Shown here: positions 24,679-47,489 of the stretch, piece by piece | How the letters are laid out: the number at the start of each line of letters is the position of its first letter | Position numbering within the stretch: position 1 is the stretch's first letter | Source of the DNA: Acidimicrobiia bacterium | GTDB taxonomy: Bacteria > Actinomycetota > Acidimicrobiia > Spongiisociales > ZC4RG35 | DNA: 64,000 nucleotides | Assembly: GCA_035525055.1 (NCBI GenBank) | Contig: DATLEZ010000040.1 | Coordinates: 12,099 to 76,098 of the forward strand | Reading direction: 5' to 3' | Notes under the pieces: model-generated | Databases searched by the model: none | What the model saw: the letters and a program-made list of their open reading frames with translations, nothing else | Told to the model about the DNA's origin: nothing | Translations under genes and position numbers: made by a program

Positions 24679-24710
24679 CTGTTCAAGTCGTGTCGGTTAG
24701 GGGTTGACCC

Positions 24711-25483: not shown

Positions 25484-25561
25484 GGGCCCATAGCTCAGCT
25501 CGGTTAGAGCGCGTCCCTGATAAGGACGAGGTCCGTGGTTCAAGTCCACGTGGGCCCACCA
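25484..25561 (+). tRNA. tRNA-Ile (anticodon GAT), CCA encoded
   Basis: Perfect cloverleaf by hand folding: GGGCCCA/TGGGCCC acceptor, GCTC/GAGC D stem, CGTCC-CTGATAA-GGACG anticodon arm, CGTGG-TTCAAGT-CCACG T arm, A-CCA. Confidence 0.95.
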
Positions 25562-26723
25562 AGAGAGTCTCATTCGAACCATGGCCACAAGAAACAGGCT
25601 GCTTCGCCTCCCAGGGCAACGAACCGTGCGGTCGCTCACGCCGCCCCATCACGTGTTGACGGGTGTATGTCAAGGCATGGTCGGGCGACAACAGCAGATC
25701 CATCTCGCTTTCAAGCCTTTGCGGTAAATCGTCAGCCAATAGATCCTGGAGTGGCTGCCGAAGATCGGCCCCGCCGATCCGATCGTCAAGCAAATACAAC
25801 CGTTCAAACATGGCTTGGTTGGTCAGACGGCGGGTCAGGTCATTGCCCTCTGTGTAGATCCAGGCGCATTCAGACAGAAGTTCGAGTATCGAATCGACTA
25901 CCTCGATTGCCTTTTCAAACTGATAGCTCGCCGCCTCCAAGAGCCGACGGGCCGTCAGTTCCTCGCGTCGAATTCGGTCTTGTTCCTCTTTCAGGAGATC
26001 CAGCGGGATGGCCTCGGCATAGTGGGCGTCAAGCAACCGGCGCCGCTGGATGTCGAAGTCAGCCAGTCGCTTTTGTTGGATCTCGGCTTCATTGCGCCCG
26101 AGTGCCTTGGCCTTATGAATGTGATCGAGCACCAAGTCCCGGAGCTTTGACATAGCGTCGGAACTCAGGCTGACCGATACATAAAACTGTTCGACGGCTC
26201 TCTCAACGGCCCCGGCTGGAACATAGGGCTGCCGGCAGCCGTTGCGCCGAGTCCGGCCGCTGCAGTAGAAGTAGGCGTAAGCCCCACCGTTACCGTGAAC
26301 CTGCGTAAAGGAGATGCGCGACCCGCAATAACCGCACCAAAGGGTGCCCTTGAGGTAGTGCTTGTGCTGACGAACCTTTTCCCCCGACTCGCGGCGCGAC
26401 CGCAAGATGGCTTGCACCGCTTCGAACACGTCTTCGTCGATCAATGGTTGGTGGCGGCCGGGATACTCGACGCCCTCCCACGTGACCACGCCGATGTAAT
26501 AGTGATTCGCTAGTACCTTGGCCACGTTGGAGGTCGTGAGCGGTCGGGCCGGTTGCCGTGGCGTGGTCGGAGTGCGCAGGCCTCGGTCGGCCAGTTCAAT
26601 CTGGATGTCGCGAATAGACCACTCGCCGGTGGCGTAAGCGCTGAAGGCCCATTGGATATACGGTGCCCGGTCTTCATCGACCACGACGGTGCGAACACAG
26701 GCCAGCGCCAGGAACCCAATCAT
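25562..26723 (-). pseudogene. Large serine recombinase lacking the N-terminal resolvase catalytic domain
   Basis: Recombinase-domain and zinc-ribbon blocks (WSIRDIQIELADRGLRT; LWCGYCGSRISF...YFYCSGRTRRNGC) plus a coiled coil. No S-recombinase catalytic domain upstream. The frame runs on, without a stop, antisense through the tRNA. Confidence 0.75.
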
Positions 26724-26752
26724 CGTTGGTAGGTCGACCGGTCCTAAAGCGT

Positions 26753-26872
26753 TTGGACTACCTGTATTTCGATCTCCGCAACCGCAAGAAGGACGAGATC
26801 GTCGTGGTGACACTTCGAGGTGACTCGATGAACGTGCGACTACTCGACTCGTCTGGGGAGCCATCTACCTGA
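26753..26872 (+). pseudogene. DUF1883-like N-terminal fragment
   Basis: (TTG)DYLYFDLRNRKKDEIVVVTLRGDSMNVRLLDSS resembles the DUF1883 N-terminus as I recall it. The frame stops after about 39 codons. Confidence 0.4.
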
Positions 26873-27005
26873 AGACGGACGGCGAGCGTCTGATCACCGC
26901 CTTCAAGATCGAGGCCGGATCACCCACGAAGAAGTGGTTCTACTTCGAGTACGGGCTGGACGCCACCGGTCAGCTGTCCCTGGTCAGATGGGTTTAGCCA
27001 GCCGA

Positions 27006-27812
27006 TCAGCTGACCAACTCCTGGAAGAGGTCCGGGAGCACCCGGTCCGCGGGGAGACATAGCTGCTCTCTCACATCTTCGCGGTAGCTGAGGAGATGGC
27101 GAAGGCCGGCCAGGGTGTTGCCCTCCTCGCGGTAGGCACGCACTAGGAGCCGATGCGAGGTGTCACGGAACGGCGAGCACGCGATGGCGGCAAGGCTGGC
27201 TTTGATCGCCAGCAGATGGCTGTTGCTCTCCAGAAAGCGCGCAGCGAGGGCTTCCAGGACGTGGACCCGGGTCTCTCGATAGCACTCCCGCTCTGGATTC
27301 ACCCACGGCTCATCCCAATCGGGAAGCAGGTCATAGCTGAACGTCTCGATGACTGCCTCCCCATCAACCGGTGTTGAGCGGCCCGACAGCAGCGTTCGGC
27401 CCAAGGTCTCCGCATCGTGGAGGTCGACGTCACACGTCTCGGCCAGCTCGAGATGATCGCCGTCGCTGTGAACCAGTTGCGGCCGTGTCGATCCGAGTCG
27501 CCACAAGGCTGTTCTGAGTCGGCCGTGGGCATGGGTGTCGACCACGTCCGGCCAAAGCATGGCGGCGATCTGCTCCCGTGGCATCGGTCGCCGGCGCAGA
27601 GCCAGAAAAGCCAACAAACGGTGCGCCGAGGAACCGCTCGAGGGAGGGTCGCTTCCTCCGACGATTCTGAAGCAACCGAGGAGTTCGACCCGGAAAGACT
27701 CTGCCGACACTTGTGGCCCCCAATCAGTCTTCTCAACTCTAGAGAGCTGTCGGCGCCCGAATTGATCCCGACGATATCCCGGTGTGACGGATCGGTGACG
27801 CCCAAGGAACAC
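27006..27812 (-). CDS. SARP-type transcriptional activator (wHTH + BTAD)
   Basis: VELLGCFRIV...AHRLLAFLALRRRPMPREQIAAMLWPD...LRTALWRL then BTAD-like helices (RDTSHRLLVRAYREEGNTLAGLRHLLSYRE). Start uncertain. Confidence 0.75.
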   Translation of the reverse strand: MFLGRHRSVTPGYRRDQFGRRQLSRVEKTDWGPQVSAESFRVELLGCFRIVGGSDPPSSGSSAHRLLAFLALRRRPMPREQIAAMLWPDVVDTHAHGRLRTALWRLGSTRPQLVHSDGDHLELAETCDVDLHDAETLGRTLLSGRSTPVDGEAVIETFSYDLLPDWDEPWVNPERECYRETRVHVLEALAARFLESNSHLLAIKASLAAIACSPFRDTSHRLLVRAYREEGNTLAGLRHLLSYREDVREQLCLPADRVLPDLFQELVS

Positions 27813-27854
27813 CTGTCGGTGAGAGTCGATCCGGTCTCACGAAGAGGGAAACGA

Positions 27855-29009
27855 ATGGGTCATTCACTTCTGCGTCAGCTGAGACTTCACCGAGCGATCC
27901 TTCTCTGGGGCTGTTGGCGGGTTGTCCTCGAGTTGGAGGTCCTCAAAGCAAGGGCCAGCGGCGAGATCGCCTTTCTCTTCGGGACCGAGGCAGATCCCAA
28001 CAAGCCGGTGGTCTACCTCGACACCATGAACCTGGTTCTCAATGCCGACGAGGATGTGTTCGGCCCCGGTGGGACACCTTCGGCCTGCCTAGCTCCCGGC
28101 TCACGCCCACGTATCGACTTCGACCAGAAGTCACAGAAGTTCGAATCCGGGTTCGAGATCATGATCGACTTCCCGGCCCTGCGACTGGAGACCGAGAAGG
28201 AGCAAGAGGGCGATCGGGAATCCGACACACCCGGCCCTCTCGCAATCCCGACCAAGGCCCAAATTCGAGGGCACTTCCCGGGCACACTCCGACCGGTGGA
28301 GTACGGGGTGGAGATGTTCGAAGGTGAGCTCATCATCGCGTTGCCACCTCAGGTCGAAGACAAGATCCGGATGTCCGAACTGCGGGTGGAATTTCTGATC
28401 CCACTCCGGTGGATCCGCTTCACTTCCCACAAGCAGCTGACCCTGCAGCCGGTGTTCCTCTCCGCTGCCGGGACCACCCCGCCAACGGGCGAGGACTTCT
28501 ACCCGGGGCTCGCCAACGCCAACGTCCTTTGGGGAAGATGCTGCGTCGAGTTCGTGACCCGATGCCCCATCTACGTCGACGAGCAGGATTGGCGGGTGGC
28601 GACGCAGAACGAGGCGATCGCCTTCAAGAACGGCACCGACGTCAGCGACGCCATCGAGGTCTTCGTCGTCGGGGAACTTGACCCGGTCGACATGTGGGGT
28701 GGAGGGGCCACTTGGGGCTCGGGCACCGCCACGGCCAAGGTGGTTTCGACGGACAATCAGCTACCACTGAACCAGACCCACATGGCTCACGAGCTGGGGC
28801 ACGTCCTCGGGCTGGGGCACCCCGGTGACTCCGGCGACGGGCTCACCGATGGTTGCATCGGTTCGCTGATGGAGCCGAGTGGGTTCTTCGCCGACAACCC
28901 GGCACTCCAGTGCGAAGGCAATTGCGACAACATCTCAAACCCGTTGCTCCGCTTCGCTCCATGGCAATTCTGCATCAGCCGGGATCGGCCCGACGACCAG
29001 CTCTTCTGA
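27855..29009 (+). CDS. Metzincin-like zinc metallopeptidase with a ~270-aa N-terminal region of unknown function; no signal peptide seen
   Basis: ATG at 27855 after GAGGGAA. Extended zinc motif HELGHVLGLGHP (HExxHxxGxxH) followed by SLMEP (Met-turn-like). The upstream part of track ORF 27417.. is antisense to the SARP gene. Confidence 0.65.
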   Translation: MGHSLLRQLRLHRAILLWGCWRVVLELEVLKARASGEIAFLFGTEADPNKPVVYLDTMNLVLNADEDVFGPGGTPSACLAPGSRPRIDFDQKSQKFESGFEIMIDFPALRLETEKEQEGDRESDTPGPLAIPTKAQIRGHFPGTLRPVEYGVEMFEGELIIALPPQVEDKIRMSELRVEFLIPLRWIRFTSHKQLTLQPVFLSAAGTTPPTGEDFYPGLANANVLWGRCCVEFVTRCPIYVDEQDWRVATQNEAIAFKNGTDVSDAIEVFVVGELDPVDMWGGGATWGSGTATAKVVSTDNQLPLNQTHMAHELGHVLGLGHPGDSGDGLTDGCIGSLMEPSGFFADNPALQCEGNCDNISNPLLRFAPWQFCISRDRPDDQLF

Positions 29010-29265: not shown

Positions 29266-30131
29266 ATGGTCGACGGAGAACGCGAGACCTGGGACCTCGA
29301 GTACTGCGTCAAGAAACGGTGGCCACATTCTCAGGACCCTGTCCGCAACAACGTCGAATTGACCATTCGGCTCCGCAATCGCATTGAGCATCGATACGAG
29401 GCCGGGCTGACGGTGGCTGCCACTGGGTTTACGCAAGCTCTTGTCATTAATTTTGAGGAAGAGCTCGTCAGCCACTTTGGTCCGACCTATTCGATTGCCG
29501 AGTACGTCCACATACCTGTTTCACTCAGCACGTTGTCGCGTGAGGGAGTAGCTCGGCTAGTCGCCGCCCAACAGCAACTCCCACAAAAGCTGAAGGACTT
29601 CTTCGTTGAGTATCGATCCGGCGTAACGCCGGAAGTTGCAGCTGACCGTCGATTCGAGTTCCGAGTCGAGATCGTTCAGAAACGGACTGCCAAGTCCGAC
29701 GCGGAATCTTGCGGTCTGTCAGCTTCGTAAACGAGGGCGACCTTACAGATGATGAACTGGCTGCCTATCAGGCTCTAGCCAAGACAGGCCGGGTCATACT
29801 TCGGGAAAAGTCGCGACCCGTCTCGAACCTCGGCCGGCTCAGGCCAAAAGCGGCTTGCCTGCAGGTAGAACAACAGATCCCGTTCAGGTTCAGACCTTCA
29901 GCCGAGTTTCCGCAAGCATGGAAACATTTCCGTGTTCGTCCACCGACTACCACCAAGGGGCAAGCACGGCAGAAGACCGATGAGCGATACTGCTATTACG
30001 AAGCCTGGAACGACTACGTCTACACCCCGAAGTGCGTAGAGCTCCTAGTGCGAGAGTGCGGGACCGCAAAAGGCTTCCGCAAAGTAATAGGTCGCAGTCC
30101 GACTGTTAAGCAAACCACACCGTCTAAGTAG
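29266..30131 (+). pseudogene. DUF3644-like gene, N-terminally truncated and split by a frameshift near 29700
   Basis: WDLEYCVKK...DPVRNNVELTIRLRNRIEHR matches my recollection of DUF3644. Two overlapping ORFs (29266..29730 and 29709..30131) continue one another in different frames. Confidence 0.4.
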
Positions 30132-30322: not shown

Positions 30323-30370
30323 GTCTCAATAGGGCCACGTCTCAATAGGGCCACGTCTCAATAGGGCCAC
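30323..30370. repeat. Three perfect head-to-tail copies of the 16-mer GTCTCAATAGGGCCAC
   Basis: Read directly at 30323-30338, 30339-30354 and 30355-30370. No spacers. Confidence 0.95.
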
Positions 30371-30381
30371 AAGACAGCTAG

Positions 30382-30552
30382 CAGGCGAACCACCGCAGAT
30401 GGCCAGACTTCGATGACAAGGCCGCAGGCGAGCTGATGTTCAAAACTCTGCGAGGTGGGCCGGTCCGGCCGAACAGCTTCCGGCGCCGAGTCTGCGCCCT
30501 GGGGGCCAAGGGTCGCGAGGTCAACGCAAACAACGTGAGGTTGCAGGTCTGA
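30382..30552 (+). pseudogene. Tyrosine-integrase-like fragment (about 56 codons)
   Basis: Translation ...GELMFKTLRGGPVRPNSFRRRVCALGAKG... resembles the lvFpt-rGgplr-snfrrrvw segment preceding the HxLRH box of phage integrases. No catalytic residues present. Confidence 0.35.
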
Positions 30553-30558
30553 TGAGGA

Positions 30559-30993
30559 TCAGCCGAGGGTCACGCGAGGGTTCGACCCGGCTGGGACCTC
30601 AGTGAAGTCCGGGAGAGTCTTCAACACCTCCTCCGCTCCTGCCGGGGCATACACCGCAAGGATCACCATCGGCTCGTAACTGGTGTTCAGTGTCGAGTGG
30701 AACACCCCCTTCGGGATCCAAACGGCGTCGCCTGGCACGACGGGCTTCGGTTCACTGTCGTCGATCGTCTGATCTCCTCTCCCAGAAAGGATGTAGAGGA
30801 TCTCGTCCGACTCGGGATGGTTGTGCCGATCATGTCCCTTGCCTGGAAGGAGGACGACATGCATCAGGCTGCAGTCACCGCCTTCCGTGTTGTCGGTTGC
30901 AATGAGTGGCTTGATGATTCCCCAATCGAAGGTCCAGGTCGGGATCACAAACGGATCTACGAACTTGGCGGGCATGGTCCTCTCCCCTCTCAT
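30559..30993 (-). CDS. Cupin-domain protein
   Basis: GKGHDRHNHPESDEILYILSG ... PGDAVWIPKGVFHS are the two cupin motifs. Confidence 0.8.
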   Translation of the reverse strand: MRGERTMPAKFVDPFVIPTWTFDWGIIKPLIATDNTEGGDCSLMHVVLLPGKGHDRHNHPESDEILYILSGRGDQTIDDSEPKPVVPGDAVWIPKGVFHSTLNTSYEPMVILAVYAPAGAEEVLKTLPDFTEVPAGSNPRVTLG

Positions 30994-31815
30994 CTAAACC
31001 GTCATGGACTTGAAGCGACGCATGTTCTCGGTCATGGCCCTCTCGGTGGGCAGGCGCTCCATGGATGAGGCACCGAAGAACCCGACGATGCCCTCGGTGC
31101 GGTCCAGCACATATTGGGCATCCTCCGGCTCGGCGAGAGGGCCCCCGTGACAGAGCACAGTGATTTCGGGGTTCAATCTGACTGCCGCGTCACGCATGGC
31201 CTGGATCTCGACTACACATTCGTCGAGGGTCTTGGCAGTCTGCGCACCGATAGTCCCTTTGGTGGTGAGCCCCATGTGAGGGACCAGCACGTCTGCACCA
31301 GCCTCGGTCATCGAGACCGCGTCGTCCGGGTCGAAGACATAAGGTGCCGTAACCAGCCCAAGGCGAGCGGCCTCTCTGATCATGTCGACCTCAAGCCCGT
31401 AACCCATACCGGTCTCCTCTAGATTCGTCCGGAAGGTGCCGTCGATGAGACCCACGGTTGGGAAGTTCTGCACCCCGGCGAATCCTGCGTCCATGACCTG
31501 GCGCAGGAAGTGAGGCATGAGGCGAAAGGGGTCGGTCCCGCACACTCCCGCAAGGACCGGGGTGTCACGGACTATCGGGAGCACCTCATTTCCCATCTCC
31601 ATGACAATCGCATTGGCGTCGCCGTAGGGGAGCAGGCCAGCCAGTGATCCCCGTCCGGCCATTCGATACCGACCCGAGTTGTAGATAATGATCAGGTCGG
31701 CGCCACCGGCCTCGGCGCACTTCGCCGAGAGGCCGGTGCCAGCCCCCGCCCCGATGATCGGATCGCCCCGCGCGAGAGTCGCCAGGAGCCTGGCCCGGGC
31801 ATCATCACCGGTCAT
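30994..31815 (-). CDS. Phosphoenolpyruvate-hydrolase-like TIM-barrel protein (PF09370-type; equivalent to the Tm-1 C-terminal half)
   Basis: [49 protein letters not shown]...[13 protein letters not shown]. Confidence 0.8.
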
Positions 31816-33068
31816 CGCACCCCTTTCATATAGGCATCCAGCTTCTCCGCCATCGCTGTGGCGAACGCCGGATTATTGATGTCGCAGTCCATCTCGATCA
31901 GCTCGACCGAGCTGGACAGGTTCTCTCGGATCGCCCCGAACAGCGCGGCGTCGGCGTCCGGATCGTAAAAAGGCTGGCCCTCGACGGCGATCATTGACAC
32001 GCCCCGAAGCGGGATGAAAAGGGCCGTTGGCCCACTGGCACCCGACAGCTTCTCAGCGATCTGTCGCCCCAGCTCTGCGGCTTCCTCTGGGGTGGTTCGC
32101 ATGAGAGTCACCGCTGGGTTGTGCTGGTACATCGTCCGACCCTCGAACTTCTCGGGCACGGTGTCAGGGGCACCGAAGTTGACCATGTCGAGAGCCCCCA
32201 GCGAGACCACTTGGGGAGTGCCGACCCGCGCCGCCGCCCCGAGCCGATCAGGACCGGCAGTGAGCACGCCGCCCACCAACTCGTCACAGAGTTCGGTAGT
32301 CGTGAGGTCGAGTATCCCATCGAAGAGTCCTGCGTCGATCAGATTCTCCATTGCCTTACCGCCGGTGCCGGTGCAATGAAAGACCAGGACCTCGTAGCCG
32401 CGGCTCTCCAGGTTGGCTCGGGCTTGGGACACGGCGGGCGTCGTGACACCGAACATCGTGGCCGCCACCAGCGGGCGTGGGTCGTGGAGCTCGACCGGCG
32501 CCTTCTTGACCATCCCGGCGATGGCCGCAGCAGCGTTCGCCAGAATCCGGGCGGAGATCGAGTTCACCCCAGCGATGTCGGTCACCGACGCCATCATCGT
32601 GATGTCGGTGGCTCCCACGTAGCGGGATGTGTCCCCCGAGGCCATGGTGGAAAGCACCATTTTGGGGACTCCAACGGGCAATTGCTGCATTGCAGAAGTC
32701 GCAATGGCAGTTCCCCCCGAGCCACCTGCAGCCAGGACTCCATCGAAGCGACCTTCCTCGTATAGCCGCCCAACCATTGCGGCAGCCGCTTGGGTCATGG
32801 CGGCGACGGCCTGGCCCCGGTCGCCGGCAGCAGCGAGAGCGTCCGCGTCAGCGCCGATGGCCGCCGCCACCTGGTGCCGGGTGATGTCGGGAGTGATTCC
32901 GGAAGGCTCATTGACGCCGACATCTACGACCAGCACCTGCACATCATCGCCCAGGAGGCGATCTCGCAGATACGAATACTCCAAGCCCTTGGTGTCGAGA
33001 GTGCCCATCAGGAGGATGGTTGGCAAGTCGGACACGGGCTCTCCTTTCGTGTGTTCTGACCCAACCAC
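31812..33068 (-). CDS. UPF0261 / Tm-1-like ATP-binding domain protein, copy 1
   Basis: [21 protein letters not shown]... N-terminus and family-length 418 aa. 4-nt overlap with the downstream TIM-barrel gene. Confidence 0.85.
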
Positions 33069-33101
33069 GCCGGCCGTCGGCGAGGGTTAGGGTGACGGGA
33101 T

Positions 33102-33890
33102 GTGCGATACCCCGGTCGTCGAGGGATGATCGACAGGTTCGGGCTCGACGGTCGGACCGCCGTGGTCACAGGGGCCAGCCGGGGGCTTGGTCGGGCGATG
33201 GCCGAGGCGCTGGCCAAAGCGGGGGCAAAGGTTGTTCTGGTAGGCCGTGACCGGGACGAGCTCGGCCGGGTCGCGGCGGAGCTCGCCGACCAATCCTGCG
33301 ATGTCGTCGTAAGGGAGCTCGATCTCTCCCGGGTCGATGACATCGAATCGTGGGTGGAGGGCGTCTGGTCTGAGTTAATGCCCATCGAGATCGTGCTCCA
33401 CTCAGCCGGCCACCAGCGCCGGGCGCCGGCGATCGAAGTTGACCCGAAGGATTGGGAGAAGATCCTGACAGTGAATCTCACTGCTCCCTTCTTCCTGTCA
33501 CGGGCGTTCGGAAGACGGCAGATCGAGGCTGGATTGGGTGGGTCCCACATCTTCATCGGGTCTCTGACGACCCTCAGAGGGATCGCCAACACTGCGCCTT
33601 ATGCGGCGTCGAAAGCAGGTCTGGCGGGTGTGGTCCGGACGCTGGCGGTTGAGTGGGCGAGCTCCGGGATTCGGGTCAATGCCATCGCCCCGGGGTATTT
33701 TCGGACCGCTCTGACGGAAGGGCTTTTCCAGAATCCCGAGCTGAGCGCATGGGTCCATTCGCGGATCCCGATGGGCCGGTTGGGTGTTCCCGATGATCTC
33801 GGAGGTGCCGCGGTTTTCCTGGCCTCCGAGGCCTCCTCCTACATGACCGGGGCCGTCCTGGGTGTCGATGGTGGTTGGCTGGCCGGCTGA
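33102..33890 (+). CDS. SDR-family oxidoreductase
   Basis: TGASRGLG cofactor motif and YAASKAG catalytic motif. The start may be the ATG at 33126. Confidence 0.9.
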   Translation: MRYPGRRGMIDRFGLDGRTAVVTGASRGLGRAMAEALAKAGAKVVLVGRDRDELGRVAAELADQSCDVVVRELDLSRVDDIESWVEGVWSELMPIEIVLHSAGHQRRAPAIEVDPKDWEKILTVNLTAPFFLSRAFGRRQIEAGLGGSHIFIGSLTTLRGIANTAPYAASKAGLAGVVRTLAVEWASSGIRVNAIAPGYFRTALTEGLFQNPELSAWVHSRIPMGRLGVPDDLGGAAVFLASEASSYMTGAVLGVDGGWLAG

Positions 33891-33934
33891 GGAGTCGGCA
33901 GTGCGGGACGGTGACGTGGCCGGCTGTCCTTCAC

Positions 33935-38238: not shown

Positions 38239-38242
38239 TTTC

Positions 38243-39133
38243 TCAGTGTTGGATCAAGGGGAGCACATGAGCGCTGGCTCGTTCAACCAGCCAGTCGTAG
38301 AACTCCTCGCTGAGGGTCGAACTGCCGTGGTCCTGGATGAACTTGAGCTGCTCAGGTGAGATACCGGCGGGGTTTTCGTCGATCGCATTGGGATACGGAT
38401 TGGCAGGGGTCCGGTCGATCGGCGCCACAAATTCCATCGTCAGCGCACCGTCGTAACCGATCTGCCTGAGCAGGGCAATGACCTCGGTCCAGTCGTAGTC
38501 ACCCATTCCTGGAGGCATCCGATTGTTCTCGGCGACGTGGAAGTCGGTGAGTCGATCTCCGACGTCGAGGATGGCCTGGCGCCAGTCGGCCTCCTCGATG
38601 TTGATGTGGAAAGCATCGAGGCAGACCCCGCAGTCAGGACCAGTAGCCTCGGCGAGCGCCATGGCCTGCTCGCCCCGGTTGATGAAGTAGGTCTCGAAGC
38701 GGTTGAGAGGCTCGATACAGGGACGAACGCCCTCGACGAGAGAGTGGGCCATGATCTCGGCCATGCCCTCCACCGCCCATTTCCACTCCTCCTCGGGCGA
38801 TCCGTCGGGAATGATCTTGCCGACAGTTGCGGGCACGATGGTGATCTCGTGTCCCTCGAGCTCCTTGACCATCGTGATGCAGTCCTTGACATACTTCACG
38901 GAGGCGGCCCGTTGGGCCTCGTCCTTGGCCACCAGGTTGCGCTCGCCAAGCATCAGGGTCACCGCACCCCAGCACTTGAGGCCTGCGTCATCAAGCAGGG
39001 CTTTCACGTGCTTGGTGTCATAGATGTCCGGCTCGCCGCTGATCTCGATACTCGAATAGCCGAACTTCGCCAATCGGGCGATCGTTACCTCGATCGGCTC
39101 GGCCCGCATCCAGTTGTGCATGGACAGGTGCAT
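38243..39133 (-). CDS. Xylose-isomerase-like TIM-barrel protein (sugar phosphate isomerase/epimerase family)
   Basis: 296 aa. GYSSIEISGE..., CLDAFHINIEE and HVAENNR patterns typical of AP_endonuc_2. Confidence 0.8.
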   Translation of the reverse strand: MHLSMHNWMRAEPIEVTIARLAKFGYSSIEISGEPDIYDTKHVKALLDDAGLKCWGAVTLMLGERNLVAKDEAQRAASVKYVKDCITMVKELEGHEITIVPATVGKIIPDGSPEEEWKWAVEGMAEIMAHSLVEGVRPCIEPLNRFETYFINRGEQAMALAEATGPDCGVCLDAFHINIEEADWRQAILDVGDRLTDFHVAENNRMPPGMGDYDWTEVIALLRQIGYDGALTMEFVAPIDRTPANPYPNAIDENPAGISPEQLKFIQDHGSSTLSEEFYDWLVERASAHVLPLIQH

Positions 39134-39185
39134 CGATCATCCTCCTCGACTGGGAGCAACCCGGCGCCGCTCACTAGCCAAGAAT

Positions 39186-39203
39186 TGTATACAGCTCTGT
39201 ACA
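39186..39203. promoter_or_regulatory. Candidate GntR operator in the divergent promoter region
   Basis: Two adjacent palindromes, TGTATACA (39186-39193) and TGTACA (39198-39203), in the 126-nt spacer between the minus-strand operon that encodes GntR and the ABC operon. Confidence 0.4.
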
Positions 39204-39259
39204 CACGCGCCTCGCCGGACCGTGGTATTTTCGTCGGCGGTGTGCAGACCGGTGAGCAG

Positions 39260-40339
39260 ATGAGTGTGGTCAAAGCTGCAGGGTCGGAAGTGATGGGAGG
39301 CGCCCGGAACCGACCGGAGCTAAGGCGTCGCCTACTGATCGGCCTGGGTTCGGTCCCACTTCTCTTCCTCATTGCCTGGATCTTCTTTCTCTCCCAGGGA
39401 ACCTCGGCCGGACCGGCAGTCGCACAGCCCGGCAGGTTTCTCGTCACGCTCCTCGACGCCGTCACCGTGGCCGGGCTGTTCTTCGTTGTGGCCTCGGGAT
39501 TCACTCTCATATTCGGTCTGATGCGGACCGTGAACATGGCCCATGGCTCTCTCTTCTTGCTGGCTGCCTATCTCGGCATCAGCTTGCAGCAGACGATGGT
39601 TGGCAAGACACGGAACATCGAACCGGCGGATGTGAGCATGGCCTCGTGGCTCGTGCCGCTCTTCGTGGGGGCGTTGGTTGCTGCCGTGATCGGCATAGTC
39701 GTTCAGCAGGTCCTGTTGAGATGGAACGAAGGTCAGGAGCTGCGCCAGGCATTGATCACACTGGCGGTATCGGTGATCCTCGCCGACCAGATGCTCTCCT
39801 GGTTTGGCGGGTTGGCCACGCGGATGATTTGGCCCGGAGCGGTGACCCACTTCGTCGAGATCCTCGGCCGGCGCTACCCGACCTCGAGACTGTTCATGCT
39901 CGCCGCCGCCATGGTGGTCGGTGCCGCCCTGTGGGTTTGGCTCAACAAGACCCGGATGGGAATGATCATTCGCGCCGGCGTCGATGACCGCGACATGGTT
40001 CGGGCTCTCGGGATCAACATCCTCGCCGTGTTCGCCGTCGCTTTCTTCGTGGGCGCATTCTTGGCCGGGGTCGGAGGTGTGATGGGTGCCTCGTTCGCCG
40101 GGGTGGCGCCCGGATCCGACGGGCAGTGGCTCCTCAACTCGCTGGTGGTGGTGATCGTGGGCGGGCTGGGCTCGCTCAAGGGTGCTCTCGCGGGTTCACT
40201 CCTCTTCGGATTCGTAGTCTCTTTTTCTCCCGCTTACCTTCCTGAGGGCCTCACCTTCTACAGCATCATCCTCACCTTTGTGCTTCTGGCCGTTGTTCTC
40301 GCCGTTCGGCCACACGGTCTGTTCGGCCGGCCCGAATGA
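39260..40339 (+). CDS. ABC transporter permease, LivH-like (HAAT family)
   Basis: In-frame ATG at 39260 of track ORF 38537... LDAVTVAGLFFVVASGFTLIFGLMRTVNMAHGS is the typical LivH N-terminus. The earlier part of the ORF is antisense to 38243..39133. Confidence 0.85.
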   Translation: MSVVKAAGSEVMGGARNRPELRRRLLIGLGSVPLLFLIAWIFFLSQGTSAGPAVAQPGRFLVTLLDAVTVAGLFFVVASGFTLIFGLMRTVNMAHGSLFLLAAYLGISLQQTMVGKTRNIEPADVSMASWLVPLFVGALVAAVIGIVVQQVLLRWNEGQELRQALITLAVSVILADQMLSWFGGLATRMIWPGAVTHFVEILGRRYPTSRLFMLAAAMVVGAALWVWLNKTRMGMIIRAGVDDRDMVRALGINILAVFAVAFFVGAFLAGVGGVMGASFAGVAPGSDGQWLLNSLVVVIVGGLGSLKGALAGSLLFGFVVSFSPAYLPEGLTFYSIILTFVLLAVVLAVRPHGLFGRPE

Positions 40340-41352
40340 GCAGATCGTCCAAGCTCGCGCTGGTACCGGTGACTGCAGCGTTGGCGGTTTTGCCGCTGGT
40401 GACGTCCGATTTCGTCACCTCGTTTCTCGTGACTCGGATCCTCATCCTCGGCGTTGCCGCCGCTTCGATCGTGTTCTTGTTCCGGTATGGCGGGATGGTA
40501 TCTCTGGCTCAGTTCCTGATCTTCGGGGTGGCTGGCTTCATGGTCGGCAACGCCACCGGTCAGGCAGGGTCGAAAGGGCTGAAGCTCGGATGGGATCCCT
40601 GGGTCGGCGCCCTCTTCGCTCTCGGGGTCTGCCTGGTCGTCGCCTTGGTCCTGGGAGCGCTGGCCAGCCGAACGAGCGGGATCTACTTCCTCATGCTGAC
40701 GCTCACCTACGCGGTCATCGGCTACTACTTCTTTGGTCAGGTCACGAACCTGTCGGGATTCGGAGGTATCACCGGGATCACGCCGCCGTCGTTCTTCGCC
40801 GGTCATCCCTGGCGGTTGTACTACGTCGCCGTCGGGCTATCACTGGCGGTCTACCTCGGTTTCAGATCGATCGCCCGGACACCATTCGGACTGGCATTGC
40901 AAGGCACCCGGGACGATCCCGTTCGAATGGCATCGCTCGGGTTCAACGTCCCGCTACACCGAACTCTGGCCTTCGTGATCGCTGGATTCGTCGCTGCCTG
41001 CGCCGGAATCTTGAACATCTGGTGGAACGGTCAGATCGACCCCACCTCGATCTCGATTGGGCCCACCCTTGACCTCCTCATCATCGCGGTCATCGGCGGC
41101 ATCTCATACTTCGGGGGCGCCTGGTTGGGAGCGGCGGTCTATGTCACCGCCAACATCTATTTGCGAAATCTCCCGCTGGTCGGACTGATCGGCATCACGG
41201 AGGCTCGATTCAACACATTGATCGGGATTGTCGTGTTGCTGATCATGGTCCTCTCACCCGAGGGGATCATGGGCATCATCGACCGGCTCCGTCGAGGGAC
41301 CCGAGGCATGAAACCCTTGGCACCTCCCATCGCCAGAGTCGGTGCCGATTGA
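40336..41352 (+). CDS. ABC transporter permease, LivM-like
   Basis: Multi-TM 338 aa with a 4-nt overlap with the LivH-like gene. Confidence 0.85.
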   Translation: MSRSSKLALVPVTAALAVLPLVTSDFVTSFLVTRILILGVAAASIVFLFRYGGMVSLAQFLIFGVAGFMVGNATGQAGSKGLKLGWDPWVGALFALGVCLVVALVLGALASRTSGIYFLMLTLTYAVIGYYFFGQVTNLSGFGGITGITPPSFFAGHPWRLYYVAVGLSLAVYLGFRSIARTPFGLALQGTRDDPVRMASLGFNVPLHRTLAFVIAGFVAACAGILNIWWNGQIDPTSISIGPTLDLLIIAVIGGISYFGGAWLGAAVYVTANIYLRNLPLVGLIGITEARFNTLIGIVVLLIMVLSPEGIMGIIDRLRRGTRGMKPLAPPIARVGAD

Positions 41353-41416
41353 TGCTCGCCCTGGCGAAGGAACAGAGAAGAGCGCGAGCGAATGCCTCGC
41401 CGACGAGGAGGAAGAT

Positions 41417-42925
41417 ATGAGAGCAATCGAAGTCAGACGGTCGAGGCCAGCCCGATGGCTGGCCCTCATCGCCGCAATGGCGATGACCCTGGCAGCATGT
41501 GCAGGGGAACCGGCTACGACCGAAACGACCGCTGCCCCGACCGAAACGACCGCTGCCCCGACCGAGACGACCGCTGCCCCGACCGAGACGACCGCTGCCG
41601 GAGTTGAGCCGATCAAGCTCGGGATCCTTGGCGAGTGTGAGGGAGCCTTTGGCGCCTTCCACGAGGACGTGGTCGGCGGGACGATCTTGGCCCTGATCAA
41701 CCATGCAGGCGCAACCAGCAACTCACCCACCAGTGCCCTCGACGGGTTTAGCAACGCGGTCGCCGGCGGCCGCGAGATCGAACTCGTCGGCACCGGATGT
41801 GGAGACGACACCCCCGACCGTATCATCCAGGAGATCCGAACCCTGGTCGAACAGAACGGCGCTGAGATAATCATCGGCCCGCTCTCGGGCGATGAGTCGA
41901 TTGCAGTCGCCAACTATGCCAAGGACCACCCGGAGATAACGGTCATCAGCGGCATCGCAGGAGCCCAGGAGACGACACTTCATGTGCAGGCTCCCAACTA
42001 CTTCCGATTCCACGGCGACGGTGCTCAGTGGAATGCGGGACTCGGCGATCTCCTGTACAACGAGGCCGGGTGGGAGACAGCAGCCGTCATCTCCGATGAC
42101 TACAGCTTCGCTTGGACCTCGACGGCCGGGTTCATCGCCGACTTCTGTGCAGTCGGAGGCGAGGTGACGAGCCGGGTGTTTCCACCACTCGGCACAACCG
42201 ACTACTCATCGTTCATCCAGCAGCTACCCGACCCGGATGAGGTCGATGGCTACTTCTGGGTCGTCGGAGGCACTGGAACGACCGCCGCTTTGGAGGCATT
42301 CATCAATGCCAAAGGCGACCTCACGGGCGAACAGCACGCCGGGAACCTGTTCTTCAATCCAGGACTCGCATCAACCCTCGGACCAGGCATCGCAGGCGCA
42401 TACGTCGGCGGATTCGCCACGCCCCCGGGTGATGTGACGACACCGGCGATCCAGGAGTACCTGGCAAGCGCCGACGCAGCATGGGAGACCCTGGCAGGAG
42501 CTCTGAGCGGCAATGAGCCTGCGCCACCGTCGGTGGCGGCGGCGTTCGGTTTCTTCTACGGCTACTACAGCGGAGGCGTGGCCCTGGTCAACGCGCTGAA
42601 TGCAGTCGAGGGTGATCTATCGAACAACCACGAAGCCTTGCGTGCCGAGCTGGCAGGTATGACGCTCGAGCTGCCCTATGGACCAGTGACCCTCGACGAG
42701 AACCGTCACGGCATCGTCGATGTCTATCTCTCGCAGCTGGTCCTCGAAGGCGATGAAGTGGTCCAGAAGACCGTGGCTCTGATTCCTCAGGTGGACCAGA
42801 CCTTCGGAGGCACCTTCAGCACCGAAACCCCCGGCCCCTCGCGGGACTTCCCGGCGTGCGAGACGAGAGACCTCCCGTGGAGCGGGAACGCCATTCCGGT
42901 CGTCGACGGTGTTCCCCAGGGCTAG
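41417..42925 (+). CDS. ABC transporter substrate-binding lipoprotein (type I periplasmic-binding fold, Leu/Ile/Val-binding family)
   Basis: ATG at 41417 after GAGGAGGAAG. Lipobox LAAC. TETTAAP repeat linker. Then a PBP1-like domain. Confidence 0.85.
   Translation: MRAIEVRRSRPARWLALIAAMAMTLAACAGEPATTETTAAPTETTAAPTETTAAPTETTAAGVEPIKLGILGECEGAFGAFHEDVVGGTILALINHAGATSNSPTSALDGFSNAVAGGREIELVGTGCGDDTPDRIIQEIRTLVEQNGAEIIIGPLSGDESIAVANYAKDHPEITVISGIAGAQETTLHVQAPNYFRFHGDGAQWNAGLGDLLYNEAGWETAAVISDDYSFAWTSTAGFIADFCAVGGEVTSRVFPPLGTTDYSSFIQQLPDPDEVDGYFWVVGGTGTTAALEAFINAKGDLTGEQHAGNLFFNPGLASTLGPGIAGAYVGGFATPPGDVTTPAIQEYLASADAAWETLAGALSGNEPAPPSVAAAFGFFYGYYSGGVALVNALNAVEGDLSNNHEALRAELAGMTLELPYGPVTLDENRHGIVDVYLSQLVLEGDEVVQKTVALIPQVDQTFGGTFSTETPGPSRDFPACETRDLPWSGNAIPVVDGVPQG
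41519..41599 (+). repeat. 3.9 tandem copies of the 21-mer ACCGA(A/G)ACGACCGCTGCCCCG
   Basis: Units at 41519, 41540, 41561 and 41582 (partial). They encode (T)ETTAAP repeats just after the lipobox. Confidence 0.9.
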
Positions 42926-43722
42926 GTGAGGAACAGTTGATACCGAATCCCGTAGTCCCGGTCGAGGCACAGCAGGATCATGCCCTGAGCATTCGGTCGG
43001 TGACCAAGGCATTCGGAGGACTGGTGGCCGTGGATGACATCGATCTCGATGTCGTTCACGGCCAACGCTTGGGTCTCCTCGGACCCAATGGGGCCGGGAA
43101 GACCACACTCTTCAACCTGGTCGCCGGTGACATGCGGCCGACATCGGGGACTATCAAGATCGGCGGGGTGGACTGCACAATGCTTCCGTCGCGCCACCGC
43201 GCAGCAATGGGCGTTTCTCGCACTTATCAGCGCACCCGCCTATTCGGTGGACTGACCGTCATAGACAATCTCTACCTCGCTCAGACCGGCAAGAGCGGAC
43301 GGCACAGGGCAGTGTGGAGATCGAAGCTGGATGAGGAGCTTTGCGAGAAGGCGGCTGCCGCAGCGACGATGGTGTGGCTCGGCAAGCGCAAGGAGGACAA
43401 GGTCGACGACCTCTCCCATGGTGAACGGCGCCAGTTGGAGGTGGCGATGGCGTTGGTCGCCGACCCCTTCATTCTGCTCCTGGACGAACCGGCGTCTGGA
43501 TTGTCCCAAGGAGAGCGGGAGAGCCTCACGGAGCTGTTGCTCGGGCTTCCCCCCGGGTTGACTCTGGTCCTCATCGAGCATGACATGGATGTGGCGCTCC
43601 GGGCAGCAGAACAGATCGTGGTCATGTCCGACGGCAGAATCGTGGCCTCCGGCTCGACCGAGGAGATCCGTGACGACCCGGTCGTTCACGCGATCTATCT
43701 CGGGGAACCCCGCGAGGAGTGA
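42856..43722 (+). CDS. ABC transporter ATP-binding protein, LivG-like
   Basis: Walker A GPNGAGKTT, signature LSHGERRQL, Walker B ILLLDEP. The real start is probably downstream of 42856 (for example the TTG near 42937), because the listed start overlaps the binding-protein gene. Confidence 0.85.
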   Translation: MRDERPPVERERHSGRRRCSPGLGEEQLIPNPVVPVEAQQDHALSIRSVTKAFGGLVAVDDIDLDVVHGQRLGLLGPNGAGKTTLFNLVAGDMRPTSGTIKIGGVDCTMLPSRHRAAMGVSRTYQRTRLFGGLTVIDNLYLAQTGKSGRHRAVWRSKLDEELCEKAAAAATMVWLGKRKEDKVDDLSHGERRQLEVAMALVADPFILLLDEPASGLSQGERESLTELLLGLPPGLTLVLIEHDMDVALRAAEQIVVMSDGRIVASGSTEEIRDDPVVHAIYLGEPREE

Positions 43723-44432
43723 TGGCCGATCCACTACTCCAGGTCGACATGCTCGAGGCTGGCTACGGCCAGTCGACGGTCCTCGATTCGCTTTCGTTCT
43801 CGATGGGGATCGAATCGGTGGCGATCATCGGGCGAAACGGCATGGGGAAGACCACATTGTGCAAGGTGATCATGGGTCTGATTCGACCGACCCGCGGCTC
43901 CGTCGTGTTCGACGGGCAGAACCTCACCCGGATATCTCCCGAGAAGGTCGCACGAGCCGGCGTGGGCTATGTGCCTCAAGGTCGAAGGCTATTTCCATCC
44001 CTGACCGTCGATGAGCATCTGCGGATGCTGTCAAGCCGGACCAACGGGAAGCGGTGGAACGCCGAAACCGTCTACGAGCTGTTCCCCCGCCTTGCCGCGC
44101 GGCGCCAGAGCCGAGCAGGCTTGCTCTCCGGTGGAGAGCAGCAGATGCTCGCCGTCGGCCGGACCCTGATGCTCAACAGTCGCCTCATCATGATGGACGA
44201 GCCATCCGAGGGCCTCGCCCCGACGATCGTGGAGACGCTCATAGCGGCCGTCCATACCCTCGTTGCCGAAGGAGTTGCGGTCCTGGCCGTCGAGCAGAAC
44301 ATCCATGCCGCGACCGCAATGGCGAACCGCCAGCTGGCAATGGTCTCCGGGAGGATCGAAGCAGAGCTCACCGCCGACCAAATTCGCGACAACCCCACAC
44401 TGCAACGCCGGTACCTGGGTGTCGACGCTTAA
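43719..44432 (+). CDS. ABC transporter ATP-binding protein, LivF-like
   Basis: Walker A GRNGMGKTT, signature LSGGEQQML, Walker B LIMMDEP. Confidence 0.85.
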   Translation: MMADPLLQVDMLEAGYGQSTVLDSLSFSMGIESVAIIGRNGMGKTTLCKVIMGLIRPTRGSVVFDGQNLTRISPEKVARAGVGYVPQGRRLFPSLTVDEHLRMLSSRTNGKRWNAETVYELFPRLAARRQSRAGLLSGGEQQMLAVGRTLMLNSRLIMMDEPSEGLAPTIVETLIAAVHTLVAEGVAVLAVEQNIHAATAMANRQLAMVSGRIEAELTADQIRDNPTLQRRYLGVDA

Positions 44433-44462
44433 GTCCTGGTACGGAAGAGAGAGGCCCTATAG

Positions 44463-45647
44463 ATGACCATCACCAATGTCGCCCTCCTGGGCTCGAAGTT
44501 CATGGGACGAACCCATTCCAACGCCTGGATGAGCGTTGGCAAGTACTTCCCCGAGGCCGGGATCGCCAACCTTCATACGGTCTCGGCTCGCAACCCCGAG
44601 GACCTCGAAATATTCGCGACCACATGGGGATGGTCATCATGGACCACGGATTGGCGCGAGGCCGTAGCGCATTCAGAGGTCGACCTGGTGGACATCGCCA
44701 CCCCGAACCACGTCCACGCCGAACAGGCGATCGCGGCCCTCGAGGCAGGCAAGCACGTGGCCTGTGAGAAGCCGCTGGCCGCAGACTTAGCGGGCGCCAA
44801 GTCGATGGCAGAGGCCGCCTCGCGAGCCGAAGGCAAAGCATTCGTCTGGTACATGTACCGGCGGGTCCCCGCCCTCGCCCTGGCCCACCGACTTGTAAAA
44901 GCGGGCGCTTTGGGCCGGATATATCACGCCCGGGCAGCCTATCTCCAGAGTTGGGGTGGGCCGGATACTCCGCTGTTGTGGCGTTTCCAGGGCGACGTAG
45001 CTGGCTCGGGTGCCCATGGCGATCTCAACGCACACATCATTGACGCGGTGCGTTTCCTCACGGGTGAGGAGATAGCCACCGTGGACGGTGCGATCGAGCA
45101 CACCTTCATTGAGGAGCGGGCTCTCCTCGAGGGTGGGGCCGGCGGTGAGATCGCTGGAGCAGGCGCCACGACCTCGGGCGCGACCGGCAAAAGCACGGTC
45201 GACGACGCCGTTCTCTTCATCGGTCGTCTCTCGGGCGGCGGATTGGCCAGCTTCGAGGCGACCCGATTGGCAACTGGCTACCACAACGCCAACCGGATCG
45301 AGATTCACGGCGAAACGGGGGCTGTCCGATTCGACTTCGAACGGATGAATGAGCTCGGCTACTACGACGCCAGCGGTGAACCCTCCACTCAGGGCTGGAC
45401 GACCATTGATGTGACGAGGGGAGGCGACGGGCACCCCTACGCCGAAGCGTGGTGGCCCGCCAGTCACGGCCTGGGTTACGAGAACACCTTCGTCAACCAG
45501 GCCGCCGACATGCTTCGGGTGATCGGGGGTCAGGATCCCGTGGTCCCGCTGCCTGACTTCGCCGACGCACTCGAGACCCAGAAAGTCTTGGCGGCGGCCC
45601 TCATCTCGGCTCGCGAGCACACCCCTGTAGACATTGCACAACTCTGA
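44463..45647 (+). CDS. Gfo/Idh/MocA-family oxidoreductase
   Basis: N-terminal Rossmann ([13 protein letters not shown]), EKP motif (VACEKPLA), 394 aa. Confidence 0.9.
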
Positions 45648-45667
45648 GACAGGAAAGAGGTACCCAC

Positions 45668-46912
45668 ATGAGCAAGGCAGCACCATTCGAGCCGGTATTT
45701 ATGCCGGTAGGCGTTCTAACCGCCGCCCTCCAAGAGTTGACGCCCCGAGAGAAGCGGGACCCGGATCCCGACCTGGCCGTCGAGGAATGGCTCGACTTCG
45801 CATCTGAGCTATCCGTTGACTGCATCGAGCTGTCTGCTGCGGTGCATCCCGACCTTGCTGACATTCCCCCCGAGGCGATGCTCGACCCGGTTGCCAACAC
45901 TCTCGACCTCCGCCAGCCATTCGACCAGAACCGGGCGAATCGAGTGCAGGCGGCAGTCGCCAGCTCGGGCGTCTACATAGCGGACATCGCCTACTTCGAC
46001 AACCTGCTTCATGACGATCCTGCCATTCGACGGGAGAAGCATGACTTCATGCTCGGAGTCATGGACGCGGCAACGCTCCTTGGAGTGCCAGCTGTCGCCG
46101 GGTTCGTCGGCCGGGACCAGACCAGATCGATGGACCAGAACCTGATCGAGTTCGAGGACAGCTTCGTCCCCCTTCTGCAGGCGGCCAAAGATCGGGGAAT
46201 CGTGTACCGGGTTGAGCAGTGCCCGATGCCGGGTTGGACTCCCAACGACAACTACCACAACAACATCGGCTACACCCCTGCCATGTGGATTGCCCTGCAT
46301 CGAATCGCCGAGAAACATGGAGTCGGGGACCAGTTCCGGGTTCATTACGACCCATCACATTCCATCCTGATGGGCCAGGACACGCGATCGATGTTCCAAT
46401 ACCTGGCAGACGAAGGTTATGGGTTCCTGATCGACGGACTCCACGTAAAGGGCCAGGTCATCGACAGCCGGGGGGTGGCGGCCTGGGGCTACGGGGGCCA
46501 GACCGTGCAACGCGGCGACTGGATCGATGGCGAGATCTCGTCGAACCCAGCCGATCTCGCCAAAGCGTGGCTGATACAAACATCGCTGGCAGAGCACGAA
46601 TTGCCCGGCACCGCCCGTCACGATCCTCTGGCGTATCTCCAGAACCGGACTGTCGACTGGCTTGACCATCAACTGGCTCTTCGCGAACTGCTCGACCTCG
46701 ATGTTGCCAAGGTACCCCTGATCGTCGAGCATGAGTACCCGCCAGCCCGCGTTCAGGAGAAGGAAAATTTGGCTCCGATCCTGGCCGGGTCGATCGCTTT
46801 CACCCGGCACATCGATCAGGCGGCAGCAGCCATGTACGCGCTCCAACACCAAGTCCTCCCGGCGCAGGGCATTCCGGTTCAGGGATTCGGCAGGGAGGCC
46901 TATCGAAGCTGA
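45668..46912 (+). CDS. Xylose-isomerase-like TIM-barrel protein (second one in the cluster)
   Basis: 414 aa. [10 protein letters not shown]..., VEQCPMPGW and [13 protein letters not shown] patterns. Confidence 0.75.
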
Positions 46913-46976
46913 ATCGGCGTTCGGCCGCGGCCCACGGGACGATCGCCATTCCCGACTCAGCGCAGAATCTCGGACA

Positions 46977-47024
46977 TCCCTGATAGAGGACGAGGTCCGT
47001 GGTTCAACTCCACGTGGTCCCACC
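46977..47024 (+). repeat. Imperfect direct copy of the 3' half of tRNA-Ile (att-like remnant or decayed pseudo-tRNA)
   Basis: TCCCTGATAGAGGACGAGGTCCGTGGTTCAACTCCACGTGGTCCCACC versus 25514-25560: 45 of 47 identical plus a 1-nt insertion that makes an 8-nt anticodon loop. The 5' half is not foldable. Confidence 0.75.
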
Positions 47025-47456: not shown

Positions 47457-47489
47457 CCTCGATCCCGCGGGTTTGGCGCGATTCCCCGC

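Follow-up and report, generated by a model that had tools for sequence, protein, structure and literature searches.

Anticodon-centred attachment (att) sites mark one of the two main classes of island found in tRNA genes (tDNAs), a class that is catalysed by tyrosine integrases and accounts for 2,083 of the 3,919 islands in Islander, where 125 tandem arrays at one tDNA are also recorded (PMC4383910). Serine recombinases have been described at such genes too, with Ghinet et al. 2011 reporting serine-recombinase actinomycete integrative and conjugative elements (AICEs) in Mycobacterium tRNA-Leu and calling such targeting 'rare' (PMC3218068). Here, we consider a 64,000-nucleotide stretch of DNA (contig DATLEZ010000040.1, referred to throughout as the window) whose host is an uncultured soil Acidimicrobiia bacterium, and in particular the 21.4 kb (25562-46976) that lie between a tRNA-Ile(GAT) gene and a displaced copy of its 3' half. 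This segment is foreign to its position, and we think it likely that two site-specific integrations, one after the other, into the origin-proximal tRNA-Ile(GAT) built it and that it then decayed. The older unit, island 1, would extend from about 30376 to 46976; the younger, element 2, runs from 25562 to about 30375, forming the tRNA-proximal 4.8 kb of the insertion, and carries what is left of a large serine recombinase (LSR). The features on which this reading depends are as follows.

25484-25561, + strand: intact tRNA-Ile(GAT), taken to be the regenerated gene (ARAGORN)
25557-25580, unstranded: tRNA-proximal junction of the recombinase element, with its core at or just after the CCA end (CCACCAAGA), then antisense GSNETLL codons
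25562-26699, - strand: LSR remnant with Recombinase, Zn-ribbon, coiled-coil and tail regions (PF07508 and PF13408 only)
30323-30370, unstranded: three perfect tandem copies of GTCTCAATAGGGCCAC (TRF: period 16, 3.0 copies, 100% match)
30358-30375, - strand: distal junction of the recombinase element, TTGTGGCCCTATTGA, an attP-derived arm
30376-30393, + strand: AGCTAGCAGGCGAACCAC, inferred left end of the older island, formerly next to the tRNA (once in the window, 0.01 expected)
30382-30552, + strand: 56-codon open reading frame (ORF), an unverified tyrosine-integrase scrap (no Pfam match)
30559-46912, unstranded: cargo, 16.3 kb and 17 genes (Pfam, NCBIfam)
46977-47024, + strand: what remains of the original tRNA-Ile's 3' half (anticodon stem to ACC), displaced and decaying, at the distal end of the whole insertion

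The tRNA-Ile(GAT) is the sole tRNA that ARAGORN finds in the 64 kb. A second copy of its stretch 25514-25560 (TCCCTGATAAGGACGAGGTCCGTGGTTCAAGTCCACGTGGGCCCACC), reading TCCCTGATAgAGGACGAGGTCCGTGGTTCAAcTCCACGTGGtCCCACC, stands on the same strand at 46977-47024; the two agree at 45 of 47 positions, apart from a 1-nt insertion, exactly as a first-pass annotation of this DNA had stated. The fragment differs from the tRNA by two substitutions (caaGtcc to caaCtcc and ggGccc to ggTccc) and by a G inserted into the anticodon loop, and the block of identity runs from the third base on the 5' side of the anticodon stem to ACC. The indel-free 37-nt part is found at 46988-47024 with 2 mismatches, a second match that arose in 0 of 100 shuffles, and a repeat search of the window also recovered the tRNA/fragment pair. 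Together with its 26-nt 5' flank the tRNA is 100% identical to that of one related contig, L204 (the loci compared carry L numbers), and the same tRNA sequence occurs in L002, L008, L012 and others. All three differences in the fragment are departures from a sequence that is invariant among relatives, as is expected for a displaced copy that is no longer under selection. The first-pass annotation had pointed to faint D-arm similarity (CTCAGC) upstream of the fragment, and to a foldable second tRNA as an outcome that would count against an island. Neither survived: the fragment has no Rfam tRNA match at E <= 10, and no 5' half was found upstream of it, the local score of 6.0 sitting against a null mean of 5.7 (P = 0.49). 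The CTCAGC similarity is thus a chance resemblance and a decayed paralogous tRNA is ruled out. Three further statements of that annotation are borne out, namely that the recombinase remnant lies directly inside the tRNA-proximal end (Pfam), that the last island gene ends at 46912 and that a conserved origin-proximal core, in which we read the crcB pair through to dnaA, follows the distal repeat.

That the segment is an insertion can be seen from related sequences in which the two native flanks are joined. These flanks consist of the following.

49436-50029, - strand: DUF3566 gene (Pfam)
48664-49416, + strand: 250-aa gene, native right flank
48261-48461, - strand: RHH/HicB-like gene, native right flank (Pfam)
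47490-48226, - strand: crcB pair, two genes, native right flank (Pfam)
47157-47456, + strand: 99-aa membrane protein, native right flank
24711-25250, - strand: CHRD protein gene, native left flank, between kinase and tRNA (Pfam)
22725-24491, - strand: CHASE histidine kinase, native left flank (Pfam)
22725-25483, unstranded: native left flank overall, comprising kinase, CHRD gene and tRNA promoter region

The right flank (47025-50029) is colinear with L001-L004 and L202-L206, of which L205, L204 and L206 are metagenome contigs obtained in a crcB-based metagenome scan. L205 (3,053 nt) starts with counterparts of window 49376-48620 and 48262-47536 (the 250-aa gene and the crcB pair, 81-83% identity), passes after about 130 nt into an intact tRNA-Ile and the sequence just 5' of it (97% identical to window 25560-25430), and ends in the CHASE kinase (L205 1821-3052 against window 24533-23299, 84%). 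In L204, crcB is followed by about 190 nt and then by tRNA-Ile and its 5' flank, matching window 25559-25458 at 100% identity, and L206 holds crcB, 1.5 kb, tRNA-Ile and then the CHRD gene (L206 2841-3699 corresponding to window 25559-24725, 79%). Since in these relatives the two flanks are neighbours around one intact tRNA-Ile, the 21.4 kb is an insertion. An empty site with tRNA-Ile abutting the 47-kb flank had been proposed as a check by the first-pass annotation, and L205 supplies it with L204 and L206 in agreement; relatives with the same 21 kb in place, which it gave as the contrary outcome, were absent among those examined, and island genes were found within 10 kb of DUF3566 in 0 of 80 relatives. 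The attL-island-attR geometry of a tRNA-integrated island that it described has therefore stood as far as the island is concerned, and has given way on the island being single, the block being a composite of two.

A further 13 relatives (L002, L006, L008, L009, L012, L014, L015, L020, L025, L030, L046, L055 and L062) carry an intact tRNA-Ile(GAT) 2-8 kb beyond DUF3566, on the opposite strand and with its 3' end towards gyrA, which is the position and orientation of the window's fragment and not of the window's intact gene. Two of them retain what look like scars. In L002, about 35 nt of recombinase gene end, with a 1-nt deletion, directly follow the tRNA-Ile at 12575-12610 and there is no island; in L008, a 13-mer of the island-1 left end lies beside the tRNA-Ile at 9205-9225. 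The crcB pair is gone from both, and these scars and losses together suggest that deletions ran from integrated elements into the flank. L002 was also considered as a virgin empty site and rejected, since its tRNA 3' flank resembles that of the window because it is a scrap of the same recombinase gene end, and crcB has been lost. Half-tRNAs that start at the same TCCCTGATAAGGA are present at the same locus in L056 (15850-15895) and L033 (18831-18881), which indicates that the site has been used recurrently, and a 27-nt piece of tRNA-Ile, from T-arm to end, lies at L062 14025-14051, 600 nt from the intact gene. Two observations may be recorded alongside: ARAGORN calls a 72-nt tRNA at the L056 fragment, yet one without a D-arm, and an ORF that reads as an excisionase-like HTH protein stands beside the half-tRNA in L033.

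Turning to element 2, the LSR remnant has its Recombinase and Zn-ribbon domains at about 26672-26186 (Pfam) and lacks the N-terminal ~185 aa, which form the Resolvase catalytic domain. Residues 186-598 of its homologue P0003 (630 aa, encoded on L083-85; P numbers denote homologous proteins) align to window 26696-25455 at 75% identity, and residues 1-185 have no counterpart anywhere in the window; the remnant is also 73% identical to the intact L081/L199 protein (568 aa). By these alignments, the window gene is the remnant of a family member and not a functional member. The rest of the element holds a handful of genes.

26750-27000, + strand: DUF1883-like gene scraps, abutting the recombinase truncation point (weak PF08980, E = 0.004)
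27006-27812, - strand: BTAD-domain regulator gene (PF03704)
27846-29009, + strand: metzincin-type HELGHxxGxxH-motif protein (from the translation; no Pfam match)
29266-30131, + strand: partial DUF3644 gene, C-terminal part, with a second overlapping ORF (PF12358 profile positions 64-181 only)

The DUF3644 ORF pair at 29266-30131 is possibly one frameshifted gene. The replication and DNA-translocation proteins that form the backbone of an intact relative, L083, have no homologue in the window, and element 2 was probably mobilisable or conjugative originally.

The recombinase belongs to a sizeable clade, with 3,515 proteins at E <= 1e-30 among 8,000 candidates scored. Intact members (568-630 aa) possess the Resolvase, Recombinase and Zn-ribbon domains, and their genes run into the 3' ends of tRNAs on the opposite strand, these being tRNA-Glu in L081/L199 and tRNA-Ile in L083-85, with two more distant homologues at tRNA-Pro (L283) and tRNA-Ser (L284). 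Their tail motif (GSNxxxLVxxxGxEP...) is the antisense translation of the T-arm and acceptor stem; it occurs in the strict form GS[NSK]..LV...G[FLIV]EP in 85 of the 120 best homologues (P0001-P0120) and more loosely in many others. In L282, which belongs to the complete genome CP129495.1, the recombinase gene runs into a 26-nt tRNA-like 3' fragment that lies about 125 nt from, and is not part of, an intact tRNA-Ala(GGC) (L282 10648-10700 and 10818-10891), and this fragment may be a relic att site or reflect a tandem array. L081, L083, L282 and L284 share a backbone of TrwB-like ATPase, Replic_Relax, HTH_3 and ImmA-like peptidase genes, followed by the recombinase. The first-pass annotation had considered a serine-type enzyme unusual for a tRNA att site. 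For this clade, which targets tRNA 3' ends, the oddity falls away, but the LSR is not the source of the 48-nt repeat. The size of the clade suggests that tRNA targeting by serine recombinases is not rare in Actinomycetota; we found no later survey of such recombinases, and the literature that we found calls targeting of this kind rare or unknown.

Both ends of element 2 can be placed by comparison with the intact element in L083. The tRNA-proximal junction has the same form in L083 (tRNA-Ile) and L081 (tRNA-Glu) as in the window. At the other end, the far-end site of L083 (3649-3673, ATGGGACGCTCTTTTGTGGCCCTAC) has a similarity to the tRNA junction that is confined to a short core and its surroundings, and the reverse complement of the site has one match in the window, at 30358-30377, where 0 are expected. 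Within this, a single copy of the 15-mer TTGTGGCCCTAYTGA lies at 30358-30372 on the minus strand of the window, where 0 copies are expected. Of the 198 loci compared, L083 and L084 alone contain it; there it sits at the distal end of the intact element, oriented with respect to the recombinase as in the window. The last copy of GTCTCAATAGGGCCAC forms this far-end site, the arm being triplicated in the window and single in L083. The two window junctions (~25557-25575 and 30358-30375) share only CCAC(C)AAGA, as is likewise the case in L083, and there are no long direct repeats.

When the 3' end of the recombinase gene is joined to the far-end arm (window 30358-30372 to 25562-25580, both on the minus strand; L083 arm at 3662-3676), both elements yield the reading frame ...GSNETLL-WPY-stop, their sequences differing by synonymous codons (TAT/TAC). 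The restoration of WPY-stop by this joining places the crossover at or just after the CCA end and attP inside the last codons of the gene. With attP there, the protein would close with WPY-stop while the element is a free circle, and integration swaps the last three residues and stop for a tail read antisense through the tRNA, amounting to +72 aa in P0003. It is tempting to see in this swap a built-in switch that could signal the integrated state to the enzyme or its expression, with tRNA targeting being widespread and rule-based in Actinomycetota, and we offer the idea tentatively, as more doubtful than probable on the comparisons made here. Were it true, serine-integrase tRNA targeting would be a widespread habit in Actinomycetota and not the rarity that the literature describes.

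The relative order of the two integrations is suggested by what lies just beyond element 2. The sequence at 30376-30393 is missing from the empty sites L204-L206, and of 281 loci L008 alone contains its first 13 nt (AGCTAGCAGGCGA), placed 3 nt after the tRNA-Ile CCA; a search of viral contigs gave no match for this left end next to tRNA-Ile. We infer from this that 30376-30393 would be the left end of island 1 and that L008 keeps a remnant of it. Since that end now sits after element 2, element 2 appears to have come second, between the rebuilt tRNA and island 1, and the reverse order would place the displaced half-tRNA between the two parts.

The history that we propose would therefore have three steps. 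In the first, an integrative element would have recombined in the anticodon stem-loop, its attP carrying a tRNA copy from the anticodon stem to the 3' end. This copy would have rebuilt the gene, and the original 3' half would have been displaced to the far end, at 46977-47024, where it is decaying; a geometry of this kind usually points to a tyrosine integrase. The same element would have brought the 16.3-kb cluster, whose sequence looks to be derived from a related Acidimicrobiia genome. In the second step, a small LSR element would have landed between the rebuilt tRNA and island 1, at the CCA end of the former, with a recombinase gene that crosses attP and whose frame, once integrated, would run antisense into the tRNA. 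Deletions would then have stripped island 1 of all mobility genes, and element 2 of its transfer and replication backbone and of the catalytic domain of its LSR. With no intact recombinase left, the whole block is predicted to be fixed and immobile.

The 17 cargo genes encode a cupin, a PEP-hydrolase-like protein, two UPF0261 proteins, an SDR, a GlcD-like FAD oxidase, a GntR/FCD regulator, a creatininase-family (IolN-like) hydrolase, a sugar-epimerase-like TIM barrel, a five-gene Liv-type ABC importer, a levoglucosan-dehydrogenase-like GFO/IDH/MocA enzyme (312 bits, below the family cut-off) and a 414-aa TIM-barrel protein. Judged by these families, the cluster looks like one for uptake and catabolism of a sugar- or cyclitol-like compound. 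At least 10 related metagenome-assembled genomes (MAGs) contain clusters colinear with it, sharing 76-81% nucleotide identity, and the homology does not extend past the outermost genes, breaking off at 30578 and 46912-46918. The product of the last cargo gene had no exact match on record, which places the window's own genome outside the collection consulted. In two MAGs the cluster and gyrA/tRNA-Ile are on separate contigs (L030 against L090/L142, and L025 against L092/L141). The flanks of the cluster are not common to most of these MAGs; in the one that was annotated they are ordinary metabolic genes, with no mobility genes, and no tRNA was found beside the cluster in the relatives examined, in the 10 kb sampled on each side. 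Within the importer's substrate-binding-protein gene, the 5' part holds four copies of a 21-nt repeat (CGACCGAAACGACCGCTGCCC) at 41517-41599, which would encode a repeated linker rich in Thr, Glu, Ala and Pro.

Several points weigh against the history set out above and need careful consideration. The cargo has a GC content of 0.626 and a third-codon-position GC (GC3) of 0.757, a composition indistinguishable from that of the core, no pair of regions compared is closer in codon usage than the cargo and the right core, and within the same MAG the cargo diverges from the window to 76% nucleotide identity compared with 77% for gyrA/gyrB. The compositional foreignness that the first-pass annotation had suggested looking for in GC and codon-usage profiles is thus not there. 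Given that the cargo is as diverged from relatives as gyrA/gyrB, 'foreign' is to be read as foreign to the site and not to the lineage, and native composition with core-like divergence indicates that the cargo came from within the lineage. The empty-site contigs are only about 80-84% identical to the window genome, the contigs of the closest MAGs (L001, L003 and L004) end short of the site, and the 3' flank of the fragment has no significant homology to the native tRNA 3' flank of L204/L205 (P = 0.68). Both ends of element 2 rest on matches of 15-20 nt, which are significant and short. No convincing far-end site was located for the L199 and L282-L284 elements, and the attP reconstruction is consequently based on two elements, that of the window and that of L083/84. 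Lastly, no tyrosine integrase or excisionase was detected in the interval and island 1 is without any mobility gene; PF00589 was absent among the ORFs scanned by Pfam, with no full six-frame HMM scan made. The enzyme of the first step is accordingly a matter of att geometry alone. The first-pass annotation had placed a tyrosine-integrase-like scrap 5 kb inside the island, and this finds no support: phmmer with the ORF at 30382-30549 gave no match at E <= 0.001 among 1.84 billion proteins, tblastn of the same ORF against plasmids and all loci was not significant (best E = 1.3, to an integrase fragment in L148), and tblastn of two tyrosine integrases against the window gave no match.

If one accepts the two integrations, the donor of the cargo may still have been the host's own chromosome, an integrative element having moved the cell line's own cluster to the tRNA by imprecise excision. 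This differs from the history proposed above in the donor only, and it would fit well with a cluster that is widespread in the lineage, in ordinary chromosomal surroundings, and that shows native composition and core-like divergence. We nevertheless regard it as somewhat unlikely, because the relatives' clusters have neither a tRNA in the sampled 10 kb on each side nor, in the one relative inspected, a recombinase in the 10 flanking ORFs, so that a site of capture is not evident.

It may also be considered whether the 21.4 kb arrived all at once, as a composite delivered by one crossover in the anticodon loop, the LSR element having nested in it beforehand in a previous host or in a circular form. 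One pair of long repeats does bracket everything, nothing in the window dates the parts relative to their arrival, and the flank at 30376-30393 shows only that the LSR element lies between the tRNA 3' end and island DNA. Against this, L002 has the scrap of an LSR 3' end without an island and L083 carries the intact element alone, and such lone elements at a chromosomal tRNA make independent integration the simpler reading; we consider a single arrival improbable. Still less probable, to a degree that makes it hard to entertain, is that the LSR itself made the 48-nt repeat by an anticodon-loop crossover, the block being one LSR island. The remnant is indeed the only recombinase in the interval, it abuts the tRNA and its clade is tRNA-specific. 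However, in the 11.6 kb on the far side of the intact L083 element no tRNA repeat exceeds about 11 nt, so this LSR does not explain the 48-nt repeat; the junctions share only the short CCA-end core, and the homologous far-end site is 4.8 kb from the tRNA and not at 46977, so the idea was already disfavoured. The view that there is no island, the second copy being a decayed paralogue or chance and the 21 kb vertical core DNA, draws on the native cargo composition and on a divergence from relatives equal to that of core genes, and can be set aside almost entirely, being already refuted by the empty sites L204-L206 and facing cargo that lies elsewhere in relatives, a fragment that has no tRNA-model match, a chance-level 5'-half similarity and a repeat match far beyond chance.

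Two successive integrations thus being the history that we favour, the setting of the window may be described briefly. A DUF3566 scan of species-representative genomes returned Acidimicrobiia-type MAGs only, the nearest with gyrA/gyrB at 87.7% nucleotide identity. The origin region of an actinobacterial chromosome makes up the right part of the window (Pfam), with these genes.

60126-60992, + strand: yidC (Pfam)
57591-58958, - strand: dnaA (Pfam)
56324-57400, - strand: dnaN (Pfam)
54527-54862, - strand: DciA-like gene (Pfam)
52414-54339, - strand: gyrB (Pfam)
49968-52412, - strand: gyrA (Pfam)

On the other side of the insertion, the CHRD gene (24711-25250, minus strand) is present in L206 and missing from L205, a presence/absence polymorphism 5' of the tRNA. 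A 717-codon open frame (24711-26864, minus strand) spans the CHRD gene, the tRNA in antisense and the recombinase remnant; as a single gene it was rejected as spurious, an artefact of high G+C. Further out, still on the 5' side of tRNA-Ile, large STAND-type regulators (BTAD + NB-ARC + TPR; adenylate cyclase + AAA + TPR) occupy 14773-21543 on the minus strand. Counterparts that are roughly 31-32% identical lie 5' of tRNA-Ile in L002 (16409-19777) and L008 (9470-12805), and these regulators may be a fast-evolving syntenic neighbour of the tRNA.

Several consequences follow from this locus. As the cargo equals the core in GC and codon usage, methods based on composition would miss the island, and here the tRNA-plus-fragment signature flags it even though all mobility genes of the older island have been lost. 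A 16-kb set of catabolic operons that is common in soil Acidimicrobiia has been brought within about 11 kb of dnaA, and the origin-proximal tRNA-Ile is a recurrent landing site with two sublocations, the cases in point being L002, L008, L033, L056 and L083. The tRNA-proximal element would be passed over in surveys of tDNA islands that, like Islander, select for tyrosine integrases alone. The LSR clade looks numerous, and its members would be natural serine integrases with a predictable, conserved attB at tRNA 3' ends, which could serve as integration tools for Actinomycetota.

Among known systems, the placement of attP recalls that of the myxophage Mx8, in which attP lies within the 3' end of intP and integration into a tRNA gene alters the C-terminus of the integrase. 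The element described here would have the same attP-in-gene arrangement, but Mx8 Int is a tyrosine recombinase and the present enzyme, as read from its domains, a serine one. With the anticodon-centred class 'A' tDNA islands of Islander (Williams 2002; Hudson et al. 2015, PMC4383910), the window shares an intact tRNA and a same-strand displaced 3' fragment, as well as an empty site in relatives and metabolic cargo. It departs from them in that Islander filters for a tyrosine integrase, which the window block does not have, in cargo that is not compositionally foreign, and in a tRNA-proximal member that is an LSR element at the other sublocation, the CCA end. The block therefore has the structural marks of a tDNA island (the tDNA, the oriented fragment and the empty site) and is without the integrase. 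Element 2 can be likened, by description, to the Mycobacterium tRNA-Leu AICE group (PMC3218068), which also has an LSR at a tRNA 3' end in a small element with replication and DNA-translocation genes. The differences are that the host class is Acidimicrobiia, that the targets are Ile, Glu, Pro and Ser, and that the backbone consists of TrwB-like ATPase, Replic_Relax, HTH and ImmA, with the window copy lacking the catalytic domain and the backbone. Set beside these systems, the insertion is an element of an ordinary kind, and the tRNA-targeting LSR clade with attP in its stop region is the more interesting lead.

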